A stretch of 61,086 bases of DNA, filler included, from Rhabdomonas costata (lineage: Eukaryota): the NCBI GenBank assembly GCA_019059605.1. It is 18 parts of 18 records of this genome, joined end to end, with 100 filler letters (N's around TTAATTAATTAA, not from the genome) between each part and the next. Parts side by side here need not be neighbours in the genome. Positions count along the whole stretch, not along the records: positions 57,807 to 61,086 come from JAHMHO010001071.1; 17 more parts are not named here. One strand, 5' to 3'. Position numbers and translations under genes: made by a program. A model generated the notes under the pieces. It had not been told where the DNA came from. It did not search any database and worked only from the letters and a program-made list of their open reading frames with translations. Positions 2,214 to 61,086 of this stretch are shown here, one piece after another. Within the stretch, counting starts at the first letter, position 1, and every line of letters starts with the position of its first letter.

Positions 2214-3287
2214 GTGAAGGGATGGAAACCCAAACTGTCTCTGCCTTTGCCACCATCTCCCGCACCATCTGCTGAGAGGGAAGCGCCTTAAAGGTGCCCT
2301 CAAGCACGACGTGGCGCAGGTGAGTCAGGGCCAAAACGATCATGAATTGCTCAAAAATAGCCAAAATTAGGGAAGGGGGAGGGGTGTGCAAAAAACGGGG
2401 AAAATAGGCGAAAAACCAGCCAAATCAAATTCGCATCTCTGTCTTCAAACAATAGTGGAATTAGGCAAAAAACAGGGGGGGGGTGTGATCTTTTTCCCAA
2501 AACATAGCCCAGCCCCTGAAAACCTTTCTCTCTCAACGACCTTCCCTTGCTCGCTTGTTAAGTCTTCAGGACCCAAAAATGGTCAAACTTCAACCTAAAA
2601 CGAACATAAAATGCTCAAAAATATCCTAAATTAGCGGGAGGGATGATTTGACTCTTTTGACTCTTTTTTGGGGACCCCCTGAAGACGTCACAAGGGAGTA
2701 AGGGAAGGTCATGCAGGGAGAAAGAATTTCATAGGGAGGGCTGTGCCTTCGGAATGGACAGGATCCTTCTTAAATTGTTTTTGTCACACATTATTGTGCC
2801 CCGGCGTCGCGCTAATATATATGGACCAGCTGAGCGAGAGACGGCCAACAAATGCAGAAGTACTTCCAAGCCACCAGCCCCAAGCTTGCAGGCAAAGATT
2901 AGGTCTCTGCGGCACGGGCCATGGCATAATATGGATATGCCTCACAGCCAAAAGAGAGGCAAGGGGGCTATGCAGGACGAAAGAGAGGGGGTACGCTCTC
3001 CCCACTCTGCATCCCGCACGACTCCCAAGGCCTGGGGGCCTAAGTTCTGAGGATTGCAAATATAGATATCAGACAGTTCGGTGCCAAATCGCGCCCATGC
3101 CTCCTTTTATTTTGACCACACTTGCACATTCAGCGAGGCCCTCAGTCCCACACATTGCACACCAAAACATACAACTAACCGAGTGCAATTCAACACAGAT
3201 TCCGAAAAAATGTCTTTGAGAACCACCCATACCCAACACAAATGCATCCCGGGAAACAACTGGAGCCCTTCCCATTCCCCACCACAA

Positions 3288-3387: not shown

Positions 3388-3953
3388 GGGTTGGGTGGTG
3401 TGTGGTGGCTTGTCTGGCGTGGAGCGGTGTACTGGACTGGAGTGGACTCGGCCGCTGTGACCTTTGGACGTGCGGGAGCCATGGCTTCGTGTGAGCTGGT
3501 TGTTTGTGCCTTCTTGCGGGGTATTGGAAGTGTCATTTTGCGTTATTTCGTACCCCCAAGTCGTCCCCTGGTCAAGTCCCATGCGCTAAGCGGGTATGTC
3601 TGCGGCGATTAGATAAAATAGCCTCCTTCAGTTGATACCGGCCCCGTGGAAAACCTCTCTTCAGCCAATTCAAGTTATCGTAAGCATTCGTCACCGACCT
3701 TTCGAACATGAAACCTTTTCCCGCCAGCATCCATGCCATGGAATCCCTCCACCATTTGGTTAGGGCTTGAGCTTCCGCGAGGCTTTTTCATTAGTAGTTT
3801 CTGGAACCCAGAGCCGTTTGCCGCCCAAAACTATTATTTTTTTTTCGGGATGCGATGCGCTCACTTCCCCGCACCGGATTTTCCCGCCGTGTTAGCTTTT
3901 TATTTTTATTTTTGGGCGTTACCGCGGGTTGGGTTCGTTGGTCGTGACCACGG

Positions 3954-9724: not shown

Positions 9725-10501
9725 CTATGGGACACAAACACAGAAATATGAGACCCCCCTCCCGTGGATGATGAGCTGTCAACGTGTCAACGTGAGTGGA
9801 GCGCACAACCCGCTGGCGGGTGTGTACTTCGATCCCCTGGCATCTGAGCATCCCTTTTGCGAGTGCCCCGATTCTGCTGGCTGATATGACACATTGACGC
9901 ATTCGCTCGCTGTCGTTTTGTCGTCATGCGTGTGTGTGTTGGGCGCGGCTGGATGCTGACTGATGGTGACTACTGTGGACTGTCGGGCGCATGCGCTGTT
10001 AGCCACGGGTACTTGTGGAAGATACCTTCGGAGCGTATCGTGGTGATGAACAACAACCCNNNNNNNNNNNNNNNNNNNNNNNNNNNNNNNNNNNNNNNNN
10101 NNNTTAATTAATTAANNNNNNNNNNNNNNNNNNNNNNNNNNNNNNNNNNNNNNNNNNNNGGTTTGGGGTTAAGAACCCGTGAAAGGGGAAGGGAAAGGGG
10201 AGCCAAAGGCGACAGAGGAACGAGTTACGTGGGGTGGGTGTACCCTTCTTGGCGTTCGTGTGTGGTGCCGTGTGACACTCTTCCATAGGCTTTTTTGCAA
10301 CGATGCACCACAACAGCATTTTGCTTGCACAGCTGTGCATGGAGGTGGGGAAGGAGAAGACTTTTTTGAGGACCACCGCCCCCATGGCGAACCGATGGCA
10401 GGTCGGCAGACAAGGCGGGGGCATTCACCGACGAGGAGGGGAAGGAAAGGGAAGAGGATCTTTATGAGAGAATCGCCCAGCGCAATGCGCCTGATCTGGT
10501 C

Positions 10502-13390
10502 TTATTGTAGACTTGCGAGGGCCCTAAGGCACTCCATGACCTTCGGGTGCTGCTCGCCAAGCTGCTGCCTCCGAATACTCAAGGCCTCCGTGTATAGTGG
10601 CTCTGCCGCAGCAAGTCTGCCTTGCTTCTTGAACAGAACGGCAAGCCCACTGAGACTATCCGCGACCTTGGGATGCTGCTCTCCCAGCTTCTGCCTGTGA
10701 ATCCTCAAGGCCTCTTCGAGCAGTGGCTCTGCTGCGGAAAGCCTGCCTTGCTTCATGAACACAATAGCAAGCCCGCTCAGGCTGTCAGCCACCGTTGGAT
10801 GGTCGTTGCCCAGCTGCTGCCTACGAATCCTCAAGGCCTCCGTAATGAGTCGCTCTGCTTCGGTGAGCTTGTCTTGCTCTATGTATGCAGAAGCAAGGCC
10901 GGCCAGGCTCTCTGCAACCGTTGGATGGTCGTTGCCGAGGTGCTGCCTCCGAATCACCAAGGCCTCTTCGTGCAGTGACTCCGATGCGCTGAACTTGCCT
11001 TGATCCCTGAAGAGGTTGGCGAGGTTGTTTAGAGAGTCCGCAACCGTCGGATGGTCTTTGCTAAGTTGCTGCCTGCGAATCTGCAAGGCCTCCAAGAAGA
11101 GTGGTTCCGCTGCGGAGTAGTGGCCTTGCTCCATGAAGACGTTGGCAAAATTGTCCAAACAGGCGGCCACTCTCGGATGGTGCTCTCCATGTTGCTGTTT
11201 GCAGATGGCCAAGGCCTCCTCAAAGAGCAAGCCGTCCGTGAGCCATGAGTGTTCGCTCCATGGATCCTGCCTGGAGGGATTCCAAGCTCGGGCTACAGCC
11301 TGGGCACAGAGGACGGGGACGGAGTCGTCTTCTCCGGCGCCTTCCTCTCCTGTCCCAACATCAAGAAGAACTTCAAACATCAGCTTCATGAACTCTATTC
11401 AATAATGGCATTCCCATTTCCGAAAACTGAAAGGTGCGCTGGTTGGAACCATGATTCGATTGTTTCGGGTTTGCACCACAAGAGTACACGGAAGTGTCGA
11501 TAACAGTTCCTTTGCGTGATTTGATGGTGAAAAGTAAAAAGAGAAATCTAAAATCAAAAGAAAGCATATAAAAAAGCAGATGATTCGAACAAGATACACA
11601 ATGTAGGTACGTAAAGGCAGCATGAAAATGTATAAATGAGGGACAAACACTGGTTTGCGAGGTGGCAACGCTCAGCCATGTGGTGGCGAAAAATACCGTT
11701 CACAACTTTTTGAGAGCGATAAAAGACCATTGGTGCAAAAACAGCACAAATTCCATACTTAGCTGAAGCAAAGGACTACTCAAGAGCTCAACGCAGCTCG
11801 GGCGAAGAGCGGCTTGCGTCTGTAGGCATCTCTCAACAAGCTCCGTAAGGCCTGCCCCAAGGGCTTCCCGAGCACTCTCCGTCAGAACGTTTTCTGCTGT
11901 CACTTGTCGAATCCGGGGCCAAAGCTCATCGCATAACTCGGGCTGTGAGAAGTACTCCGGGAGCGTCCCGGTTCCCAGAACAGCGACTACCACCCCAAAG
12001 CTCCACACATCGAAGCCAAAGGTCAATCCAGTGATCTCATCGAAGTCGGGCGGCATATACGGAGGAGAACCCTGAAATGGGTTTCGTCGAAAGAGATCAT
12101 CGCTCTGGAAATAGGAGATCCCAAAGCCCGTGAGCTTCACTGTGCCCACCGCGGACACCAGGATTTTGCTCGGCTTGAGGTTGAAGTGAACAACACCTAG
12201 CGCGCCAAAAAAAATAAATGTGTCAACGGAATGAAATGGAGATGGTAGGGAATAACATCTTAAGTTGCGCTGACAACGATGCCCTGCATAAACCCCCTCC
12301 CCCCACCTTTGTTTTTTTTTGGGGGGGGGGAGGGGAGAGCTCGAACCCACCCCATGCATTTCTGGCTTCGCTTGGAATAGTATGCTGCTTGCTTTGAAAC
12401 AAAAAGCGAATCACCTAAACAGCGGTCGCTGTACAGCCCAACAATCGGAATCTATTGAAAGGACACATACGGCTGCACGTCGCCACCACGATTCAAAGGA
12501 GAATTATTGCGTTGCGCTGGAGGGGAGGGGCGAGCATCTAGAAGGAGGGCAGTCGCTCCCCACCTACCCAGCACCCACCCCAGGGGGTTGATTTCTTCCA
12601 CATGGCTCCATGGCTCCCCATGGGCTTCCCTACCACCCCTTTTTCTGCAGCTTCTGATTTGATGTAATTTTCGATTGCCTGCTCCCAACCTTCGAAAAGT
12701 GAAGGAAACAATGCATATCGTTTGCGACGTCATATCGTAGAGTTGACAAGCGAGAAGGGCTCTCTGCTGTTGGAAAGGCCACACAATGCGATTACGAGGG
12801 AGCTGTACCTTGTCCGTGAAGATAGTTCAGCCCAGTCAGGACTTGCCTCAGGTATTTGGGAAGAAGGTTCCGCGGAAAGGCACCGTGGCTGTCAAGTAAG
12901 AGCTGCAACGAGCAAAGCACCTTTTCTTGCACGATGCAGCCACAGGAAGGAAAACATCGCTCGTCTGCAGCAACATCGAGCAGCGAGACGACGTTTTCAT
13001 GGCAAAGCCGCCTCAGAGTCTCCACCTGAAGGAAAAGTGATCAAATATTTCCGAATCACGGTCATGAACAGGATGCCTCTCAAACCTTATTCTCTTAACG
13101 AACGGAGAGCACACCTCTTTGGAGAAGCTCTCGCCTTCTCTCACCACCTTAACAGCGGCCTCAAGCTTCAAATGAGAGCTGAACGCCGGAAAAACATTGC
13201 CGCTACTTCCCTTGCCCACCATGTGCGCAATAATTCTCCACTCGCCCCGTTCTCCGCGAAGGATGGCTACTGCGGGCACGGCGGGGACGGGATCCAGCAG
13301 GCGATGAAAGTCCTTCTCGCTCATGGTTGCAAAGGAGGTCAGGGATGAGGATCTGGAGAGGGTCTTCGGCGATGATGTCTCCATCTCCAT
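10502..13390 (-). CDS. Pseudokinase fused to kinesin-light-chain-type TPR array; exons 13390-13115, 13025-12809, 12196-11759, 11394-10502
   Basis: All three introns are GT-AG and phase-compatible (0,1,1). Kinase motifs GKGSSG, AAVK, HENVV, GLNYLH, HFNLKPSK, KLTGFG, DVWSFG and RPSCVELL; six 42-aa repeats EAL.IRRQQLG.DHP.VA.SL..LA. Confidence 0.85.
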
Positions 13391-13699
13391 TCCGGCAAAG
13401 GGAAGAACGCTTGATAAGAAAAAGGGGTGGTGCCACACCAAACCCNNNNNNNNNNNNNNNNNNNNNNNNNNNNNNNNNNNNNNNNNNNNTTAATTAATTA
13501 ANNNNNNNNNNNNNNNNNNNNNNNNNNNNNNNNNNNNNNNNNNNNCATCAGCGTCAAAATAAAAACGCATAGCACGCGTGTCTGCTGGAAGCCATAAAAA
13601 TCACAAAACTCAAATGAAAGTCTTTCAAAATGAACTGGAAAAACGTGGAAAAGTGCAAACCACATGGTAACTAAATATATTTGACAAGATCCTAAAAGT

Positions 13700-13935
13700 G
13701 TGTACTCGGTATTCATGCATTCTGTCTTCGGGTTGATCAGTTGGGAATTCGGCCTTTGGTATTTGGCGTTTGTGCATTCGTGCATTCGGGATTTATGCGT
13801 TCGGGGTTCGGTGTTTGGCATTCGGCATTCGGGTTGGCTTCTCCTTTTCAGATGCTTGCTGTAGGATATTCCGATATTCATGGGTATGGGTTGCGGTTTC
13901 CATTTGGGGTTCGTTGCATTCGGGGTTTGGGTTGA
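13700..13935. repeat. Degenerate ATTCGG/GCATTCG-type short tandem repeat; related tract at about 14462-14552
   Basis: Recurring (gc)attcg(gg), ttcgggg and tttgg units. Confidence 0.55.
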
Positions 13936-14918
13936 TGACCTTAGATAGCGGTATTATGTCGTACCTAGTGATAGGTGGCATGAGATTAGCGAAGGCCATC
14001 TATCACGAAGTGTGGTGTTCAACATTTCGTGAGTATGCGACCGTATGAGAGCATACTACCAGCAAAGAATAGGGGCCCCTGCCATGACCATCCCCTCTAT
14101 CTGTCATTCTACCAGTGGTCTTATTCACTTCACTTCTCATGCATCTCTCTCTTTCGACATTTTTGTGTGGTTTTTACACAAGAGAGTCCTTTTTGCATCT
14201 CGTAGTCCATCATCAACCCACACTATTCCACATTCCTCCACCAACATTTGCTCAGAATTTGCTCAAAGCTCTGAATTCCTACACCCCCTCAGTCTCCCAA
14301 ATCTGCAGTAAGGGTGCACGTCGGACTCCACTTAGATTAATTCCATACTTTTGTGTCTCAGAGTGGCATCTATCACATTTTCTGAAGTTACCATGGCTGG
14401 TACAGTAATTTCTCGCTTTGATGTAAAGTTAGCGTACATGGAGCCTGCATTTTTTTGCCTTTAGGGATCTGGGATTCGTGTTTAGCTTCGTGGTTCTGGG
14501 TTAGTGTCTCGGGATTCTCCTTTCGGTATTCGGTCTTTGGGTTCGGGGTTCCTGATGTCCAAACATGCTACTGACCAAGAAGCATACCAGGGAAGTGTGA
14601 GGCGAGTCCTATGCGTACGCCACCGGCCACAGTGTAGGACCTCATCTACAACATCACGCGTGGGGATTAAAAACAAAACGGGTAGTCTGTAGTACCGCCA
14701 TCATGCATCCCACGTGTAGCCATTTCTGAAGTAGTGGTTACGCACCCACCACAGTAGCGCGTGGTATGGTAAAGCCGAACTGAGCCCAGTAGCGTATGCA
14801 CACAATGGCCGTAGTAGGTACAAAATGGTGGTAGGACGCTGTTGTATGGCCACGGCATTATAGTAAATGGGCGTGTATGCCAATGTATGGGCTCTGTTAC
14901 CCTATTAGTGGTGTATAC

Positions 14919-15074
14919 GTGTGTATGTGTGTTTGTGTGTGTGTGTNNNNNNNNNNNNNNNNNNNNNNNNNNNNNNNNNNNNNNNNNNNNNNNNNNNNNN
15001 NNNNNNNNNNNNNNNNNNNNNNNNNNNNNNNNNNNNNNNNNNNNNNNNTGTGTGTGTGTGTGTGTTTGTGTGTG
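14919..15074. repeat. (TG)n microsatellite spanning an internal 102-N gap (14947-15048)
   Basis: TG runs on both sides of the gap. Confidence 0.9.
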
Positions 15075-15243
15075 GATACCAGTGTCAGGGTTAGGCATAT
15101 GGGGGTAGGTTAGTGCAATGCGATCCTATGCTACGAAGCCAGCCTTGCATGGCGGTGGTCTGCTACGGCATGGTGTCATCATCGGTGGCATAGGTTGTAC
15201 CCCGACCCTGTCGTGGTCCGTTGTGACAAAGACCCAAAGACCT

Positions 15244-15246
<3 letters not shown>

Positions 15247-15273
<27 letters not shown>
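15247..15273. repeat. (CT)n microsatellite; another at 26038-26061
   Basis: Direct inspection. Confidence 0.9.
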
Positions 15274-15278
<5 letters not shown>

Positions 15279-15519
15279 CCGCTCGTCGTGGGCGCACTCT
15301 CATTGGGCCACCCACGTCGTTACCCTGCCTGTTGCCTGTTCTTCCGCATGAACCCCGATGTAAAGCCAGTGTGCCACGACGGGACAGGAGGAGCGGAAGC
15401 GAAGGAAGAGACACGTATTCGAGTGAAGCGACAACGAAACCCAGAAGGGAGTACAAGCACAAAAGCGGCAAGCAATACGGAACGGAGCACAAAACCAAGT
15501 GCCTTTCGGCTCGGGCTAT

Positions 15520-16400
15520 TCACGAAAAGGTGTTTCCAAAGAATGCCGGGACGACTGGTAGCCCTCCTGGGGGGCCGCGGGCAACGATGGCCAAATTTAA
15601 ATGCCCAATACCCAAAGGAACATGCGTGCGTTTGTGCGGGTGGGTCATGGTGGCATGTCCAGGAAAACCAGCGCGTCCAGAATGGATTTCCACTTCGGTG
15701 GAATCTCCACCTTCAAAAGTAACACAGCCCGCCACCGTGAACTTGGAGAAATGGAGTCCAGCAATCAAATTAATATTCGTTTGTACGGAGCGGTCGAAAC
15801 AAAGCAAATTTCTGGTCAGTACTATCGGTTGTCACTGAACCGCAGTCAATAACAGCATCCATTGAAAATTAAGAAGCTCAGTCCAAAGTCTGAGATTAGC
15901 ATCCCCTTCGAATTGTTGTGAAACCGCTTCCCTCCAAGGAGCCTGGAAGTCCTTGTCTAACAACGATTCTTGCTCCAGGAGCCCAGGGACACAAACAGGG
16001 AGCACACCAAGGAGGGCACTTTGGAGGAAGTGCCAGTACTTCTTTAATGCCAAAGCAAAAGTATTGAAACCAAACAAAAGCTGGGAGCGGCCTAAGCCGC
16101 AACCACAACACGAAAGAGGATTTCTCCATGACTCTAAGACACCAGCTCTGCGCCACTGCCTCTTTAATTTTCAACCGAACCGAGGAAAGCCAGTCCGGAA
16201 TAAAGCAGGGGGTGTAGTGGCGCAGGTCAGGCTGAACAGACACCCCCTCACGACAGCAGCACATTTTAATTCATGACAAAAGCTTTCTCCATGTCGGCCT
16301 TTCCCACCATACAATCACCCGAAATGCCAGTTCCCTGGGTATTGGGAACACTTGAGAGCTTTCACACCAGAAGCCAACAACCCCCTTCGCGCGATCACGC
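15520..16400 (-). mobile_element. Possible highly decayed non-LTR retrotransposon fragment
   Basis: Broken ORF pieces; VKALKCSQYPGNW weakly resembles the RT end motif F.YLG.W. Weak support. Confidence 0.25.
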
Positions 16401-17312
16401 CTTCCACATCCCTTTAAAAAGGTTGCAGTTCTTTGTCACAAGGGGAAGGGACCGCCTGTGAAATGCAAGCAAAGAAAGGAAAGCACAGCCTCAGATCCCG
16501 GGGAGGGGTGGAGAGTTGTACATCATTTCTTTGCACCAGAAAAGATAGCGGGAAAAGTCCTCTTCGGAAGGCAAACAAATCAAAAGAGGCGCAAGAACAG
16601 TTTGTCTCACAGCCTCATCCATCGCCCCCCCCCCTTCCCGCACGAAAAAACGCGGTGGCGGGTTCCCTAATTTGCTCGTTTACGTTTACGGGTGCCGTTC
16701 ATTAGAAAAAAGAGCTCGGAGTGATCAAGGGCTACGGGTGCGACGACCCAAGCGACCTCTCAAAGAAGGAAAAAAGCTCCTATTTAAAAATGAGGTATTT
16801 TAATGAGTTCATTTCAATCATACACTTTGTTTGAGACCCCCCCCCGCGGATGGACGCTTCTGAAACGACCAACATGAAGACGAAAAGGAACTCATACAAA
16901 CAAATTCAAGACACCGCTCGCAATAGGGCCACTACACCGCGGACGAGGACACCCCGTTCTGGGCTGAGGAGACCGCGGTGGCGGTGTGGGCCTGAACCCA
17001 ATCCGGGCTGAGCTGAGCGTGCGTGCTGTGGTTATCGTTGAACACCCTCAGGGGGCACATCATCCCGGGGGTCACCTCCACTCCATCGGGCGAGAGCACC
17101 ACCACANNNNNNNNNNNNNNNNNNNNNNNNNNNNNNNNNNNNNNNNNNNNTTAATTAATTAANNNNNNNNNNNNNNNNNNNNNNNNNNNNNNNNNNNNNN
17201 NNNNNNGTGTGTGGTGAGGTTTGTAAAGTCCGTCACACAGTCGTACTCATATTGCTACGCCAACTACTCAGCCCCCTTTTCGGGGTTATTTTATAAATGT
17301 TGCATTTTACAG

Positions 17313-55589: not shown

Positions 55590-58500
55590 CTGCAAATGCA
55601 CATCCCAACAGACTCACGTGAGAAACAAGCCACCCAATGACAACAATGGAGACTCGTAGAAGAGGGGATGCGAATCGTGCTCAGCTCACCAAAGAAACTT
55701 CTAAAAAAAACACCAAACTCCAGAAAAACGGTGCGGATCTTCATGGCGCATCATTGAAATTTGTTGTTGATATGTGTACTGTCTTTTCTGTGATTTCTTT
55801 GGAATCAACTGATCTCGAGCCAGTTGTCTGCAAAAGAAGGGGTAAAAAACGAATGACGAAGAGCGTATGGTCATTTACCAAATCGACGGAACAGAGAGCT
55901 TGCGAGGGAAGAAGGGAGTACAGGGAAGAAGAAAATACCATAGACCACGAAAAAGATTGAGAGATTGGGACTGAATCGAAAGGTATGGATCAAAAGGTTG
56001 GAGCTGAACTTGAAGGTGGGCTCCCTACCCCCGATCGTTAAAATGCCCGTCGAGCCTCTTCCCCTTCTAATTCCGCTCTGCCACATCAGCCACATCCACA
56101 CAAACCGCTCTCATAGAGCAGAATGTTCACCAGGAAGGGTAGCTTGTCGCGGAACCTCCGGTCGCGCTCCAGGAATTGCCTCCGGGAGCATACGCTTTGC
56201 TGAGCATCAAACATCCGCACATTCACAAAGAGAAAGAAATAAACACCCAGCAAACAAGCAATCCTGCAAGTCCATGAGCCGACTCCCGCTGGAAAATGAT
56301 GACCTGCGTAGACACGTGAAAACTACCATCAAATTAGAGAGCGGTGGTGATTCGCAGACCTCAGAGGTGCTTTTGCGACCGAAGTTCACCTGAAAAATCG
56401 CTCCAGTGGAGAATGCCACTGGATTTCCACACGCTGCCCTCCAGGATGAGTTTATGGTAACCATGGTTTTCAATTTTAGGGCGCCGGTTAATTAACAGCC
56501 TGACTATTTTGATGACCGCCGACCATCGCAAAGGTTTTTACCCTTCTTGACTTCTGCGACGGCTCCAACCTGTCTTCCGCCTGTCACCAAAATGACGAGA
56601 CTGCTCCTCTCAGAGAAATAAGCTCCATCAGGCAAAGCTTCGAAGGTCAGCTGTGAAGTTATGAGAAGCTTCGTTCAGTTGGACTCTGAGGATGGCGTTC
56701 GGTGTGGTGTGCGTTAGGAAGAGCAACGATGCCTGGCAGGCCAGGGCCGCGGTGGCTTTGGCCAGAACGTCCGCCAAGGCTCGGCTGGTAGGGTCCCTGG
56801 ACCGAACCTCGGGAGGCTCAGGAACTGAAATCTGCAAGTCAGGAATTTCCCCGCTGGACTCTCGTTCTTCGCGGTCGTCCGTTTCGCTGCCAACTCTGCA
56901 AAAAGGATAGAATGGACTGGAGGAAAACCACCGGCGAGTCCTAAAAATACCTAAACCATCCATTGGGTGGGGTCTCCCCACTGGGGTGACACATCTGCTG
57001 TTGTCCCAAATGACAGTAATCCTCCCATCCCTTGTCATGTCCATAAAAAAAGGAATGGGTACAGAAGCAGCAAAGGCACCCGAAAGTAGCCCACGAGGCC
57101 GCGGTCTCCAGGATCCCGGACTCCGCGAGCTTGTCCTGCAAAAGGAACCAAACAGAACAGACATCGAGGAACGGCCTGCTCTTGACCTACAAATCACGTC
57201 CACCCTCATTTTCCAAACTGGGTCCTTGGAGCGATATATTTACATTCCCAATCACCAACAGGGTCCAGAATCTTCCATAATTCACACAACCCTCAAGGCC
57301 ATTCCCCATCTCACTATCTCGCTAGACTGGTAGACTGGCACCTTCTTAAGGGAAGCTGCGCGTTGGTAGGCAAGCTCGGCACCCTGCCGCTGGAATCGCT
57401 GAGAGAAGCACATAAACAGACGCATGTGATGTGGTCGTCTTGGAAAGCCGAAGCGAAGCTAAAGTCAAAACGAAAGATGCGCTAGTAGGCAATGAATGTC
57501 AAAGAGGTTGGTGAGCCACAAAAAAAAAGGAGAGAAGGCTCGACAAAGCAAGCGTGTGGATGAAAATTCCCAAAATAGCGGCAGACTCTCACTCACTCCT
57601 TCGCTCACTCAATACTTTACGCCCTTGCTTGATTGACCCAAAAGAACACCCACGCACCTCCTGATGAAGAAAAAACAAACTGAATGAGGAGCCCTACCCG
57701 TCATCTNNNNNNNNNNNNNNNNNNNNNNNNNNNNNNNNNNNNNNNNNNNNTTAATTAATTAANNNNNNNNNNNNNNNNNNNNNNNNNNNNNNNNNNNNNN
57801 NNNNNNGTTGTCTCACGGTGGTTTCGGGACCCTCTTCGGACCCTCTTTCACATCCGCATCTATGGATATTGTGAGGCACGGCCCAGTGGGTTCGCGGCAA
57901 GGCTGGGGCAGTCCTTCGCTGCCTCGCTGACACTTGCAGGACCCCCCTCTTCACCGTTACGTGCTGCAGGTGCTCGCTCGTCAGCGAAGCGATGTCCTTT
58001 TGTGGATAGTTGGGCTTCGAGTCTGTTAAGGAATACGTTTGCTCCTAGACTGGTGGCTCTTCGTCTTGAAAACGGTCGTGATGTATGACTTGGGACGCTT
58101 TGATTTCCGTTGTGGAGAAAAAGGTTACGAGGGGGACCTCCGTAAGGTACTCGTTCTTGTGAAGCTAATGTGAATACTTCTGTGAACACCCGTCATAAAA
58201 AGTTTAAATCCTTGTTCGCGCTGGTTGCCTCCGCGATTGCTGTATATATTTTGTTCTGTCTAGTGCGCCGTCTTTTTTCAGGTGATGAAACCCCTTTCCA
58301 GTATATGGAATAGTGCAACAATGGAAGAGAGGGCTAAGTGCAACAATGGCAACCATTTGTGTGTGCTGCGGTCCAATGTGTTTATGTGAAGATGCCGAAA
58401 GGTTATAAGGATTTCCTTACCAGAGGTTTCTGCAGTCAGTGTTCCGCTTTTTGCACTGCGGAGGCTTCGCGCGACGATGCAAAGTGTGAAAGGCCACAAG

Positions 58501-58679
58501 TGTCCAGTTTCATGCCTGAAAACATTCGAGTGAATGTTCAATTGCCGCGGCGATCAGAACCTTACCCTTCGAGAATTCATACTCTGGGATAAAAGAGAAT
58601 CAATATGCATTCTTGTTGTAGCTGGTTAACTGTTTTTCTCTCTCGTCCGGGTTACATCCGTGCTAAGTTTTACTACACA

Positions 58680-61022
58680 ATGGGATGTACGTCGTGCAAG
58701 AAGGTCCCTGCGGTGGAAGAGGAGGCCCGGTTCGTTGGCCCGGGCCCTACCATCACTCCAGCGCTAGCCGGCAGAGACACCCCCCCTGTTTGCACCCCCC
58801 GTACCTCCACGGTGCCTCTTCCCGGGCAAGTCCCCGTTGTTGAGCGAGTCATTCTGAACCCGTCACCCCGCTCCCCTCTCAAGCAAGTGAGTCCGGTCAA
58901 TGTACCCAGCCATCAGAAAAGCCAGAGCGTGTCTTCCCCAAAAGAGAATGTGAATGAGTCAGCACCTCTTCCTGAACCAAAACGGCCGGAGCTTCCTCTT
59001 CCTGAGGCGGAGCCGGAGCCTGTGCATGCTGAACCTCAAGAAGAGGTTCATCGTGCCCGCTCTGCTGAGGACGCTGCTGTCGAGTTGACCGAAAGGAACG
59101 ACAGTCCACCTGAGGCCGCAGGTTGCGATGAACGTGGGACAGTGCGCGCTCCGATTTTTCAAGCTATCGAAACAGGTGACGCTGAGGGGCTCCACGCTGT
59201 GCTTCTCCGTGAGCAGCCCTCCCCAGAGCAGCTCCAAAGCGAACCTTACGGGTCGATGATGTACTTTTCCGCACGTTCAGGACACGTCCATGTGATCTCA
59301 ACCGTATTCGCGTGGTGCGGGGAGGGTTGCTTGGATTGGGTCGAGCCTGTCACGGGCTGCCAGCCTCTTCACGTGGCCGCAGAAAGGGGCCATCACAGAG
59401 CTGTGGCATGGTTATTGGCCCACCATCGCCAACGAAGCTTTGATGTGTGGAAGCTGAGAAACACGCTTGGGGACAGTCCAGTCGACATTTGTGTGACCAA
59501 ATCTTCAAAACACCCTGAGTGCCTTCGTGTGATGGAGACCTTCGTCGAAGCTGAAGCTGCGATGGGAGACAAGAGCTCCCTTCGTAGCTCTGGCATCGCC
59601 TCATTCAAAGTAAATCCCCGTAACCTTGCTCATTCATTGTCAATCAGCACTTTATTCGGGGACCGTAACCTCGGCTTTAGCCGCGAGCTAACTTCTGTTG
59701 AGAAGCTTTGTGGTGGAGTTATGCAGGAAGGGTCGGTTTTCTTGGAAGGAGAAACGGCGTATACAGCCTGGCTGAAGCTTAGAGATCAGCTTGTTACAGA
59801 ACGGGGCTCATTCTGGGCTCGGCATCCAACTCCTGAGCAGGTTTCCTATCGCCTGAGAGAAGCATACGAGAGTGTCGATGACGAGAAGCTCTACGACGTG
59901 GCGTTGCAGTTATATACGGCCGAGTCCTTTTTGTATCGCTCCGTTAATGCCGTGTTGACCAACCGTCATGCTTCCTCAGATGCCCACATCGCACCGTTTG
60001 TTTGGCTGCTGCACACAGCGGTGCGGAACCTCACCGAGACCATGCCGCATGTCTCGGTCTGCTACCGAACCCTCAATCTGAGCGAAGAGCAGCAGGCAAA
60101 GTACGCTCCACACAAGGACCGTGGGTTGAGCCTGATTTCGATCGATACGTTCATGTCTTGCACGTTTTCTGCGGAGAAGGTATTTTCGCTGATGGAGGAG
60201 TTTTCAGGAAACACGGTCCTTGAGATCTCTTGCAGCAATCCCCATAATCCTCGATGCTGCGCTGCCAAGATCACGCACCTGTCGTTCTATCCCGAGGAAG
60301 AAGAGGTATTGTTCCCCATGGGCCAACAGTTTCGGCTGGTCCGACAGGATTGGATGACAGTTTTGCAGTTGCACAAGCGGTTGGGAGTCGGTGAGCTTTC
60401 CCACAAGATGGATTTAGATAAGCGAGTGTGTGTTGTGCAGATGGAGGCTGTGGATGAGTTCTGGAGCATCGCTGTGGACCTCTGTGTCGACGGGGGCAAC
60501 CTTGCGGAGGCGCAGCAAATTATTGAGAGTCGTGTTGATGCAGACCAGCGAGTTTTTGGAGAATGGCACCCGGATGTGGCACACGGATCAGCAACACTTG
60601 CTGGGGTGTATAGTTTGCAGGGCAAAATGGCAGAAGCCGAGAGGCTTTTTGAGAAGGCCTTGAGAATTAAGAGACGGTGTTTTGGCCACGACCATCTCGA
60701 GAGCGCGGCCGCCCTGGACATTCTGGCTGATTTCCTCGTTAAGGATGGGCGTGATGCAGAAGCCGAGCCCCTGCTTGTGGAATCGTTGAGGATTCGGAGA
60801 CTTCCTTCAAACAGTTCCAATGTTACTTCCGGTATGGGCGTGGCAACGTGCTTGCGAAGTCTTGCGGTTATTTATCGAAATTACGAGATGTACGCAGAGG
60901 CAGAGTCTTTGATACATGAAGCCATGACGATTCCACAAGCAGGGGTTCGGTTTCTGCATCACGACCATCTCGAGAGCGCGGCCGCCCTGGACATTCTGGC
61001 TGATTTCCTCGTTAAGTATGGG
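58680..61022 (+). CDS. Intronless ankyrin + ADP-ribosyltransferase (R-S-E, ARTC clade) + TPR protein with N-terminal MGC acylation motif; true C-terminus lost
   Basis: MGCTSCKK start; ANK repeats 59148-59500 (GCQPLHVAAERGH); ART 59900-60345 (LYTAESFLYRSVN, YR, FMSCT, SFYPEEEEVL..G..F); KLC-type TPRs from about 60500 (FGEWHPDVA...AERLFEKALRIKRR). Confidence 0.92.
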
Positions 61023-61086
61023 CGTGGCCAAAACACCGTCTCTTAATTCTCAAGGCCTTCTCAAAAAGCCTCTCGGCTTCTGCCAT
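60627..61086. repeat. Direct repeat 60687-60753 / 60960-61026 and terminal inverted copy (61023-61086 is the reverse complement of 60627-60690)
   Basis: 67-nt direct repeat with one mismatch; exact 64-nt inversion joined through CGTG microhomology at the contig end. Confidence 0.92.

Follow-up and report, generated by a model that had tools for sequence, protein, structure and literature searches.

We report a gene of Rhabdomonas costata (assembly GCA_019059605.1) that lies on a short contig (JAHMHO010001071.1) within a 61,086-nt stretch of joined assembly pieces, here called the window, and that encodes, in order, an acylation-type N-terminus, a Pro/Glu-rich spacer, an ankyrin module, an ADP-ribosyltransferase (ART) domain and an array of tetratricopeptide repeats (TPRs). 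The product is probably a cytosolic, membrane-anchored, arginine-specific mono-ADP-ribosyltransferase that uses its repeat modules as scaffolds, and the gene a nuclear one of euglenid type. This succession of parts, with about four ankyrin repeats and a complete R-S-ExE catalytic set, had been proposed in an original prediction made by a model from the sequence alone, and translation, Pfam and structural models bear it out.

Neither the ART fold nor the R-S-ExE chemistry nor the repeat modules are new in themselves, and ART-TPR architectures, which occur as entries of domain databases, are present in databases unannotated. What is new is the combination of an intact arginine-type ARTC domain, the lack of a secretion signal and a predicted lipid anchor on the cytosolic face, in an unstudied euglenid family. 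According to a 2010 review (PMC3102197), arginine ADP-ribosylation of intracellular G-beta, actin and histones is seen biochemically, but an intracellular arginine-specific ART was still to be characterised; of unicellular eukaryotes it says that such enzymes "seem to be lacking". A full-text literature search found no paper joining ADP-ribosyltransferases with euglenids, or with Euglena and TPR; ARTs and bdelloids are mentioned in a general review. With an intact R-S-ExE set and a putative anchor of the inner-leaflet type, and with no signal for secretion, this gene of a free-living protist is a candidate for an intracellular arginine ART. If the enzyme is active, endogenous cytosolic arginine ADP-ribosylation becomes experimentally tractable, with the naturally catalytic-dead paralogues of the family as ready-made controls; if it is inactive, the gene adds one more uncharacterised multi-domain protein.

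The ART domain is recognised by profile, by modelled fold and by conserved residues. Pfam places the ART family PF01129 at residues 407-555 (E 3.3e-11); the scores of 43.4 bits in the whole protein and 46.4 bits in the domain by itself both exceed the cut-off of 22.3. An AlphaFold model of the domain, built from an 80-row alignment, has a mean predicted local distance difference test score (pLDDT) of 93.8 and a predicted template-modelling score (pTM) of 0.91, and Foldseek matches it first to HopU1 (E 1.6e-9, probability 1.00) and then to XopAI, Certhrax, C3 and iota-type enzymes (E 1.6e-9 to 1e-6), the matches shown being ART enzymes throughout; the profile and Foldseek searches, both suggested in the original prediction, thus each return an ART. 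In a chain-by-chain fold comparison (VIA-align) against 48,161 representative chains, all 22 chains with Z of at least 8 are ART-fold proteins, among them HopU1 (Z 16.4), XopAI (15.6), Tre1 (14.9) and rat ecto-ART2.2 (1gxy; 14.3, with a root-mean-square deviation of 2.8 Å over 183 residues and 19% identity). A single-sequence search of the PDB with the ART domain found no ART at E <0.1 (best E 0.15), and the profile of a further alignment, A2, against the PDB is dominated by TPR columns from full-length rows and says nothing on this domain.

The 80-row alignment comprises the query domain, 77 of the 131 search representatives described below and the paralogue P0003, the shortest and weakest matches having been removed by hand. 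Its columns conserved at 90% or more include N423, Y462, R463, L467, S493, S535, E540 and E542, and the four-residue set R-S-E-E is found in 68 of the 80 rows. The local motifs CYRT, S-C-T and FYPEEEEVLFP correspond to the family consensus VYRG, FxSTS and FPxEEEVL, and the original prediction had placed R, S and ExE at exactly the codons listed in Table 1. In R-S-E ARTs, which have a split beta core with N-terminal helices, the Arg lies in beta1, the Ser of S-x-S/T in beta2 and Glu-x-Glu in beta5. Since the modelled fold matches ARTs throughout and R, S and ExE fall in conserved columns, we take the domain to be a genuine R-S-ExE ART.

Its chemistry can be predicted from this assignment. The catalytic domain belongs to the R-S-ExE (cholera-toxin-like, ARTC) class; nicotinamide adenine dinucleotide (NAD+) would be bound through Arg463 and Ser493, Glu542 would be used in the transfer and Glu540 would set arginine specificity, and ADP-ribose would pass to arginine side chains of target proteins. 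The arginine specificity is predicted from the ExE rule, the first Glu of ExE being given as its mark in PMC3102197. Two background statements of the original prediction, that R-S-ExE ARTs are typically arginine-specific and that vertebrate ARTs are ecto-enzymes, both find their counterpart in that review.

Comparison with known ARTs sets the protein apart from two well studied groups. The vertebrate ARTC enzymes (ART1, ART2.2, ART5) share with it the Pfam family PF01129, in which it scores above the cut-off, the R-S-ExE set (the third motif of ART1 is listed as 'EEE' in a table of PMC7955679) and attachment to the membrane by lipid, here predicted. They are, however, glycosylphosphatidylinositol (GPI)-anchored or secreted ecto-enzymes, according to PMC3102197 and PMC7955679, whereas the window protein has an acylation-type start together with ankyrin and TPR modules, and the ecto-ART topology of a signal peptide with a GPI anchor or secretion is not seen in it by a crude hydropathy test. 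Having no signal peptide and an N-terminal acylation motif, it would therefore, unlike the vertebrate enzymes, face the cytosol. The bacterial R-S-E ARTs (HopU1, XopAI, Tre1, C3 and the enzymatic components of iota and C2 toxins) provide the best structural matches and have intracellular action in common with the predicted enzyme, but are just 12-19% identical to its domain and are delivered proteins with neither ankyrin or TPR flanks nor an N-terminal acylation start.

A start open to dual acylation has Gly at position 2, a small residue at position 6 and a Cys near the N-terminus, and Gly2/Cys3/Cys6 followed by Lys-Lys is the start pattern of the dually acylated Src-family kinases. The protein studied here begins M-G-C-T-S-C-K-K, with Gly at 2, a small residue at 6 and Cys nearby. 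On the + strand, the frame is open from 58593 to a TAA at 61044-61046 and contains in-frame ATGs at 58605 and 58680; from the second, the open reading frame (ORF) 58680-61046 encodes 788 residues. The original prediction, which ran the gene from 58680 to 61022, placed the end of the frame too early and missed the scrambled 3' end described below. The nearest database protein, P0002 (eukprot:RCo004055), is identical to the window protein, P0001, at 446 of the first 447 residues and begins at the same Met, leaving the ATG at 58605 unused in this mRNA-based model. Proteins of the RCo label series are predicted from a euglenid transcriptome, according to PMC8219788; P0002 being transcript-derived and matching residues 1-447, the gene is transcribed in its 5' half. 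The pyrimidine tract and following AG at 58666-58667, between the two ATGs, could possibly be a spliced-leader acceptor. Beyond residue 447, P0002 has 12 homologous but different residues (448-459), in a pattern nearer to that of the paralogues, and then ends; the switch at 448 could mean that the transcript assembly is chimeric, or that P0002 stems from an allele or from one more paralogue.

With its Gly2/Cys3/Cys6 start the protein is most likely myristoylated and palmitoylated, which would hold it on the cytosolic face of a membrane. We favour such a tether because of the MGCTSCKK start, its recurrence in P0002 and the lipid-anchor motifs that recur in relatives: MG-Cys starts in P0033/P0151, P0035/P0152 and P0065, and CaaX ends in P0003 (CLMM), P0004 (CSFM) and Euglena gracilis P0029 (CVIQ). 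The three CaaX-ended proteins have lost catalytic residues, P0003 and P0004 have an extra Cys before the motif, and these two also carry MGNSTT seven residues past their predicted start. A 19-residue Kyte-Doolittle scan of the whole protein, a crude test, finds no stretch with a mean above 1.1, in agreement with the original prediction of a cytosol-facing protein without a signal peptide. As there is no segment resembling a signal peptide or transmembrane helix by this test, the enzyme should be cytosolic, and the intracellular WWE domain present in 20 of the 80 aligned relatives is a second reason for placing it there.

A Pfam scan of the whole protein gives four domain types above curated cut-offs, ART among them, and 17 families are listed at E <=1. 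A full-length model from a 26-row alignment (pLDDT 79.4, pTM 0.75) assigns residues 150-787 to the ankyrin, ART and TPR parts and leaves residues 1-149 disordered. Pro makes up 18% and Glu 12% of the first 150 residues, and this flexible spacer of about 150 residues would link the anchor to the folded modules. In the ankyrin module Pfam finds Ank_2 at residues 161-248 (33.9 bits against a cut-off of 27.3) and Ank_4 at 230-283, and solved ankyrin and DARPin structures match residues ~120-275 by sequence, ranking after kinesin light chains (KLCs). The TPRs give a TPR_12 match (E 1.2e-19, 70.7 bits against a cut-off of 30.1), and the best solved-structure sequence matches to residues ~618-757 are KLC1 and KLC2 (E 4.8e-19 to 5.6e-15). 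The full-length model has eight TPR helices, that is four repeats, over residues 608-779, the last of them from rearranged DNA, and the reliable sequence (residues 608-746) holds three TPRs and the first helix of a fourth, in keeping with the at least three of the original prediction. What the window protein shares with kinesin light chain is the repeat type alone; it has no heptad-repeat kinesin-binding region and its array is attached to an enzyme. We suggest that the ankyrin module before the ART domain and the TPR module after it are protein-binding scaffolds, which may select substrates or partners or may restrain the enzyme.

Table 1. Features of the gene and its contig; positions count along the window
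Feature	Position	Strand	Remarks and basis
Gene-bearing short contig	57807..61086		3,280 nt; linker 57707-57806 sets it apart from the rest of the window
Upstream in-frame extension	58605..58679	+	25 codons from the alternative ATG; holds a pyrimidine tract, then AG (58666-58667)
MGCTSCKK, N-myristoylation/palmitoylation-type start	58680..58703	+	Gly2, Cys3, Cys6; translation, MG-Cys starts in relatives
Disordered Pro/Glu/Val-rich spacer	58704..59126	+	Residues 9-149; pLDDT <50 in the full-length model
Ankyrin module, four helix pairs	59136..59567	+	Residues 153-296; Pfam, model helices, ankyrin/DARPin matches
ADP-ribosyltransferase domain	59616..60485	+	Residues 313-602, helical N-terminal part then beta core; Pfam, AF2 model, structure comparison
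Arg463 of the R-S-E triad	60066..60068	+	Motif C-Y-R-T; alignment
Ser493-Cys-Thr, counterpart of S-T-S	60156..60164	+	Alignment
Glu540-Glu-Glu542, ExE	60297..60305	+	Context FYPEEEEVLFP, E540 at 60297, E542 at 60303; alignment
Kinesin-light-chain-type TPRs (TPR_12)	60501..60917	+	Residues 608-746; Pfam, KLC matches, model helices
Rearranged tail	60918..61086		169 nt; inverted copy of 60627-60795, its middle 48 nt (copy of 60696-60743) in direct orientation

A word-based homologue search gives 19 matches, 16 of them through the TPR part alone; limited to the ART region it gives three, all from one labelled set, and among shorter proteins no match to the ART region. With so few word-based ART matches, it took an exhaustive search to reveal the family: compared with 1.84 billion representatives, residues 320-600 retrieve 131 proteins at E <=1e-3, 18 of them at E <=1e-10. 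The paralogues P0003 and P0004 belong to the same RCo label series, are ~45% identical to the window protein and have the same ankyrin-ART-TPR order, but R463 and S493 are replaced by Cys and Leu. In a midpoint-rooted FastTree phylogeny (221 alignment columns, all 80 rows) the window protein groups with P0003, P0004 and P0021 (support 0.999), within a 13-tip clade (support 0.955) that also holds Euglena gracilis P0029 and E. longa P0028 and itself falls, with other TPR-bearing ARTs, in a clade of 24 tips (support 0.986). The R-S-ExE set is kept in five of the 13, namely the window protein, P0021, P0022, P0023 and P0025. The count of paralogues and architectures that the original prediction had called for has thus been made in protein databases and yields P0003, P0004 and the 13-member clade; the gene is not unique.

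By Pfam, 57 of the 80 rows carry ART, 20 WWE, 17 TPR_12 and 8 Ank_2. The eukaryotic ART-TPR_12 and WWE-ART proteins (Euglena gracilis, E. longa, bdelloids) are of the same ART subfamily and uncharacterised, their source names being 'unnamed protein product' or transcript identifiers. Euglena gracilis P0029 combines ankyrin, ART-like and TPR parts, with C-M-E-E in the catalytic columns; in E. longa P0028 Pfam gives TPRs alone, the ART-like region coming from the sequence search only, and the columns read Q-V-E-G. Neither Euglena protein keeps the catalytic triad. The named distant relatives are from bdelloid rotifers, Adineta with WWE-ART and Rotaria with ART-TPR_12 proteins (P0062 being one of the latter), and rotifer ART-TPR proteins lie elsewhere in the tree; a protein-atlas search agrees. 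A scan of 185,579 prokaryotic species genomes with the ART domain, by a method of low sensitivity, gave 52 pattern matches, of which none was confirmed. We regard the family as eukaryotic because the 13-tip clade includes the Euglena proteins and no close prokaryotic relative was confirmed.

Several findings weigh against an active, anchored arginine ART. The S-T-S motif is the variant S-C-T in the window protein; eight of the 13 clade members, P0003 and P0004 included, are without the full triad, a sign that loss of catalysis is tolerated; and for some R-S-E enzymes the target is not arginine but a nucleic acid or a small molecule (PMC3102197, PMC12340436). If the in-frame ATG 75 nt upstream (58605) were used, myristoylation would be abolished. 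The match to P0002 ends with residue 447, which leaves the catalytic half of the gene outside transcript support, and the C-terminus is unreliable owing to the rearranged contig end.

The first three of these points bear directly on the view that the protein, although its motif is intact, serves as a scaffold or pseudoenzyme or modifies some target other than protein arginine, whether itself, a nucleic acid or a small molecule. The eight members without the triad keep fold and repeats, so the family has non-catalytic functions, and R-S-E enzymes that target RNA exist, according to PMC12340436. The window copy, however, keeps the four key residues as well as the conserved N423, Y462 and S535, and its PEEEEVLFP context resembles the consensus FPxEEEVL, and we consider this view unlikely for the protein at hand.

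The original prediction had gone further and proposed a ligand-gated toxic or signalling enzyme, in which the repeats act as sensors that switch on toxic ADP-ribosylation or NAD depletion, as a cell-autonomous defence effector. The family is indeed lineage-specific with several paralogues, its nearest solved folds are bacterial toxins and effectors, its TPR part matches bacterial CHAT-TPR and kinase-TPR proteins, and TPR_12 arrays are joined to other enzyme heads in the assembly (a Pkinase and TPR_12 gene at 10505-12410). But none of the modules that define STAND/NLR-like or TIR-type sensors (NACHT or NB-ARC NTPase, TIR, death-fold) is among the 17 Pfam families listed at E <=1, nor does Pfam show another known immune-signalling module; most close relatives lack catalytic residues, which is odd in a weapon; constitutive lipid anchors suit a resident membrane enzyme; the 3.28-kb piece offers no genomic context; and there is no link between the gene and infection. 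The loss of catalytic residues in eight of the 13 fits a family of regulatory enzymes or pseudoenzymes at least as well as it fits a weapon. The proposal thus goes unsupported and we think it improbable. One version of it, a conditional weapon in which a ligand or pathogen protein that docks on the ankyrin or TPR modules at the membrane frees a restrained ART or NADase, with dead CaaX paralogues as decoys or regulators, is likewise improbable; were it true, the family would represent protist innate-immune effectors built without a STAND NTPase. A resident, membrane-anchored arginine ART remains our preferred reading.

The 3' end of the gene calls for separate treatment. In the rearranged tail, 60960-61026 is a direct copy of 60687-60753 (99%), 61018-61086 an inverted copy of 60627-60695 (99%) and 60918-60969 an inverted copy of 60744-60795 (87%). 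The tail supplies residues 747-788 and the TAA, which falls inside the inverted arm; the arm ends with the final base of the contig, and the opposite strand of the tail is interrupted by stop codons. The frame crosses this mosaic by chance. As the tail is a scrambled inverted copy, no reliance can be placed on residues 747-788, on the last TPR or on the stop codon. The sequence probably lacks the true C-terminus; P0003 and P0004, the paralogues of 848-856 residues, carry about two further TPRs. We read the tail as a contig-end chimera and the copy as incomplete at its 3' end. The alternative is a gene that is truly truncated or rearranged there, a decaying copy rather than a mis-assembled one. 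Such decay would account for the unequal identity of the copies (inverted 99% and 87%, direct 99%), which is unlike a simple assembler fold-back of one molecule, and the transcript-derived P0002 also departs from the window sequence, at another point. Yet codons 1-746 form an uninterrupted frame that aligns end to end with full-length paralogues, the inverted arm stops exactly at the last contig base, as in an assembly or amplification chimera, and the paralogues end, after their additional TPRs, in a CaaX motif; genuine decay thus seems to us improbable.

Weakest of all is the notion of a contig from a bacterial symbiont or contaminant, whose ankyrin/ART/TPR product would be an effector that mimics eukaryotic proteins; we hold it to be very improbable. 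In its favour, the contig is no longer than 3.28 kb and bears no second recognisable gene, the best structural matches are bacterial ART-fold effectors, and bacterial contamination of cultures is reported, in PMC8219788, for the organism of the RCo label. Against it, three euglenid transcriptome sets supply the nearest relatives that have a name, which makes a bacterial contaminant unlikely, none of the prokaryotic pattern matches was confirmed in the low-sensitivity scan, the 873 nt 5' of the start contain no long ORF, the spacer is long, disordered and Pro/Glu-rich, and the composition of the gene (GC 0.547; GC at third codon positions, GC3, 0.578) and its codon counts, which correlate with those of kinase/TPR exons on another piece (r 0.70; out-of-frame control 0.08), are compatible with one organism.

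The window consists of 18 pieces joined by 17 linkers of the form N44-TTAATTAATTAA-N44, a six-frame stop spacer, within 3288-57806. The pieces are of near-equal length, as though size-sorted (3,280-3,288 nt, with one at 3,561 nt), and, being joined by artificial linkers, adjoining pieces are not genomic neighbours. As the gene is alone on its 3,280-nt piece, with no second recognisable gene on 57807-61086, arguments from local gene context are impossible. Many piece ends (for example 3258-3287, 3388-3417 and 17207-17236) bear short tails beside the linkers, CA-rich on the left and GT-rich on the right, which look like adaptor or primer remnants rather than genomic sequence. A lone run of 102 N at 14947-15048, inside the longer piece 13546-17106, differs from the linkers with their two 44-N runs and probably marks a scaffold gap.

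Two further coding regions of the window deserve mention. On the - strand, an open frame of 384 codons at 32413-33564 matches the F-box weakly, with a score of 20.1 bits (E 6e-4) that falls just short of the 20.5 cut-off. Also on the - strand, the piece 10160-13445 holds a gene at 10505-12410 that begins with the C-lobe of a protein kinase at 11703-12410 (Pkinase, E 1.9e-16); six TPR_12 repeats come next, at 10505-11398 (E 3.7e-74), set off from it by a gap of 300 nt or a change of frame. This gene was considered as a genomic neighbour of the ART gene and rejected, the linkers putting it on another contig. Its TPRs are 35-47% identical to those of the ART family, and a kinesin-light-chain-type TPR module is thus joined, elsewhere in the assembly, to a different enzyme, a kinase.

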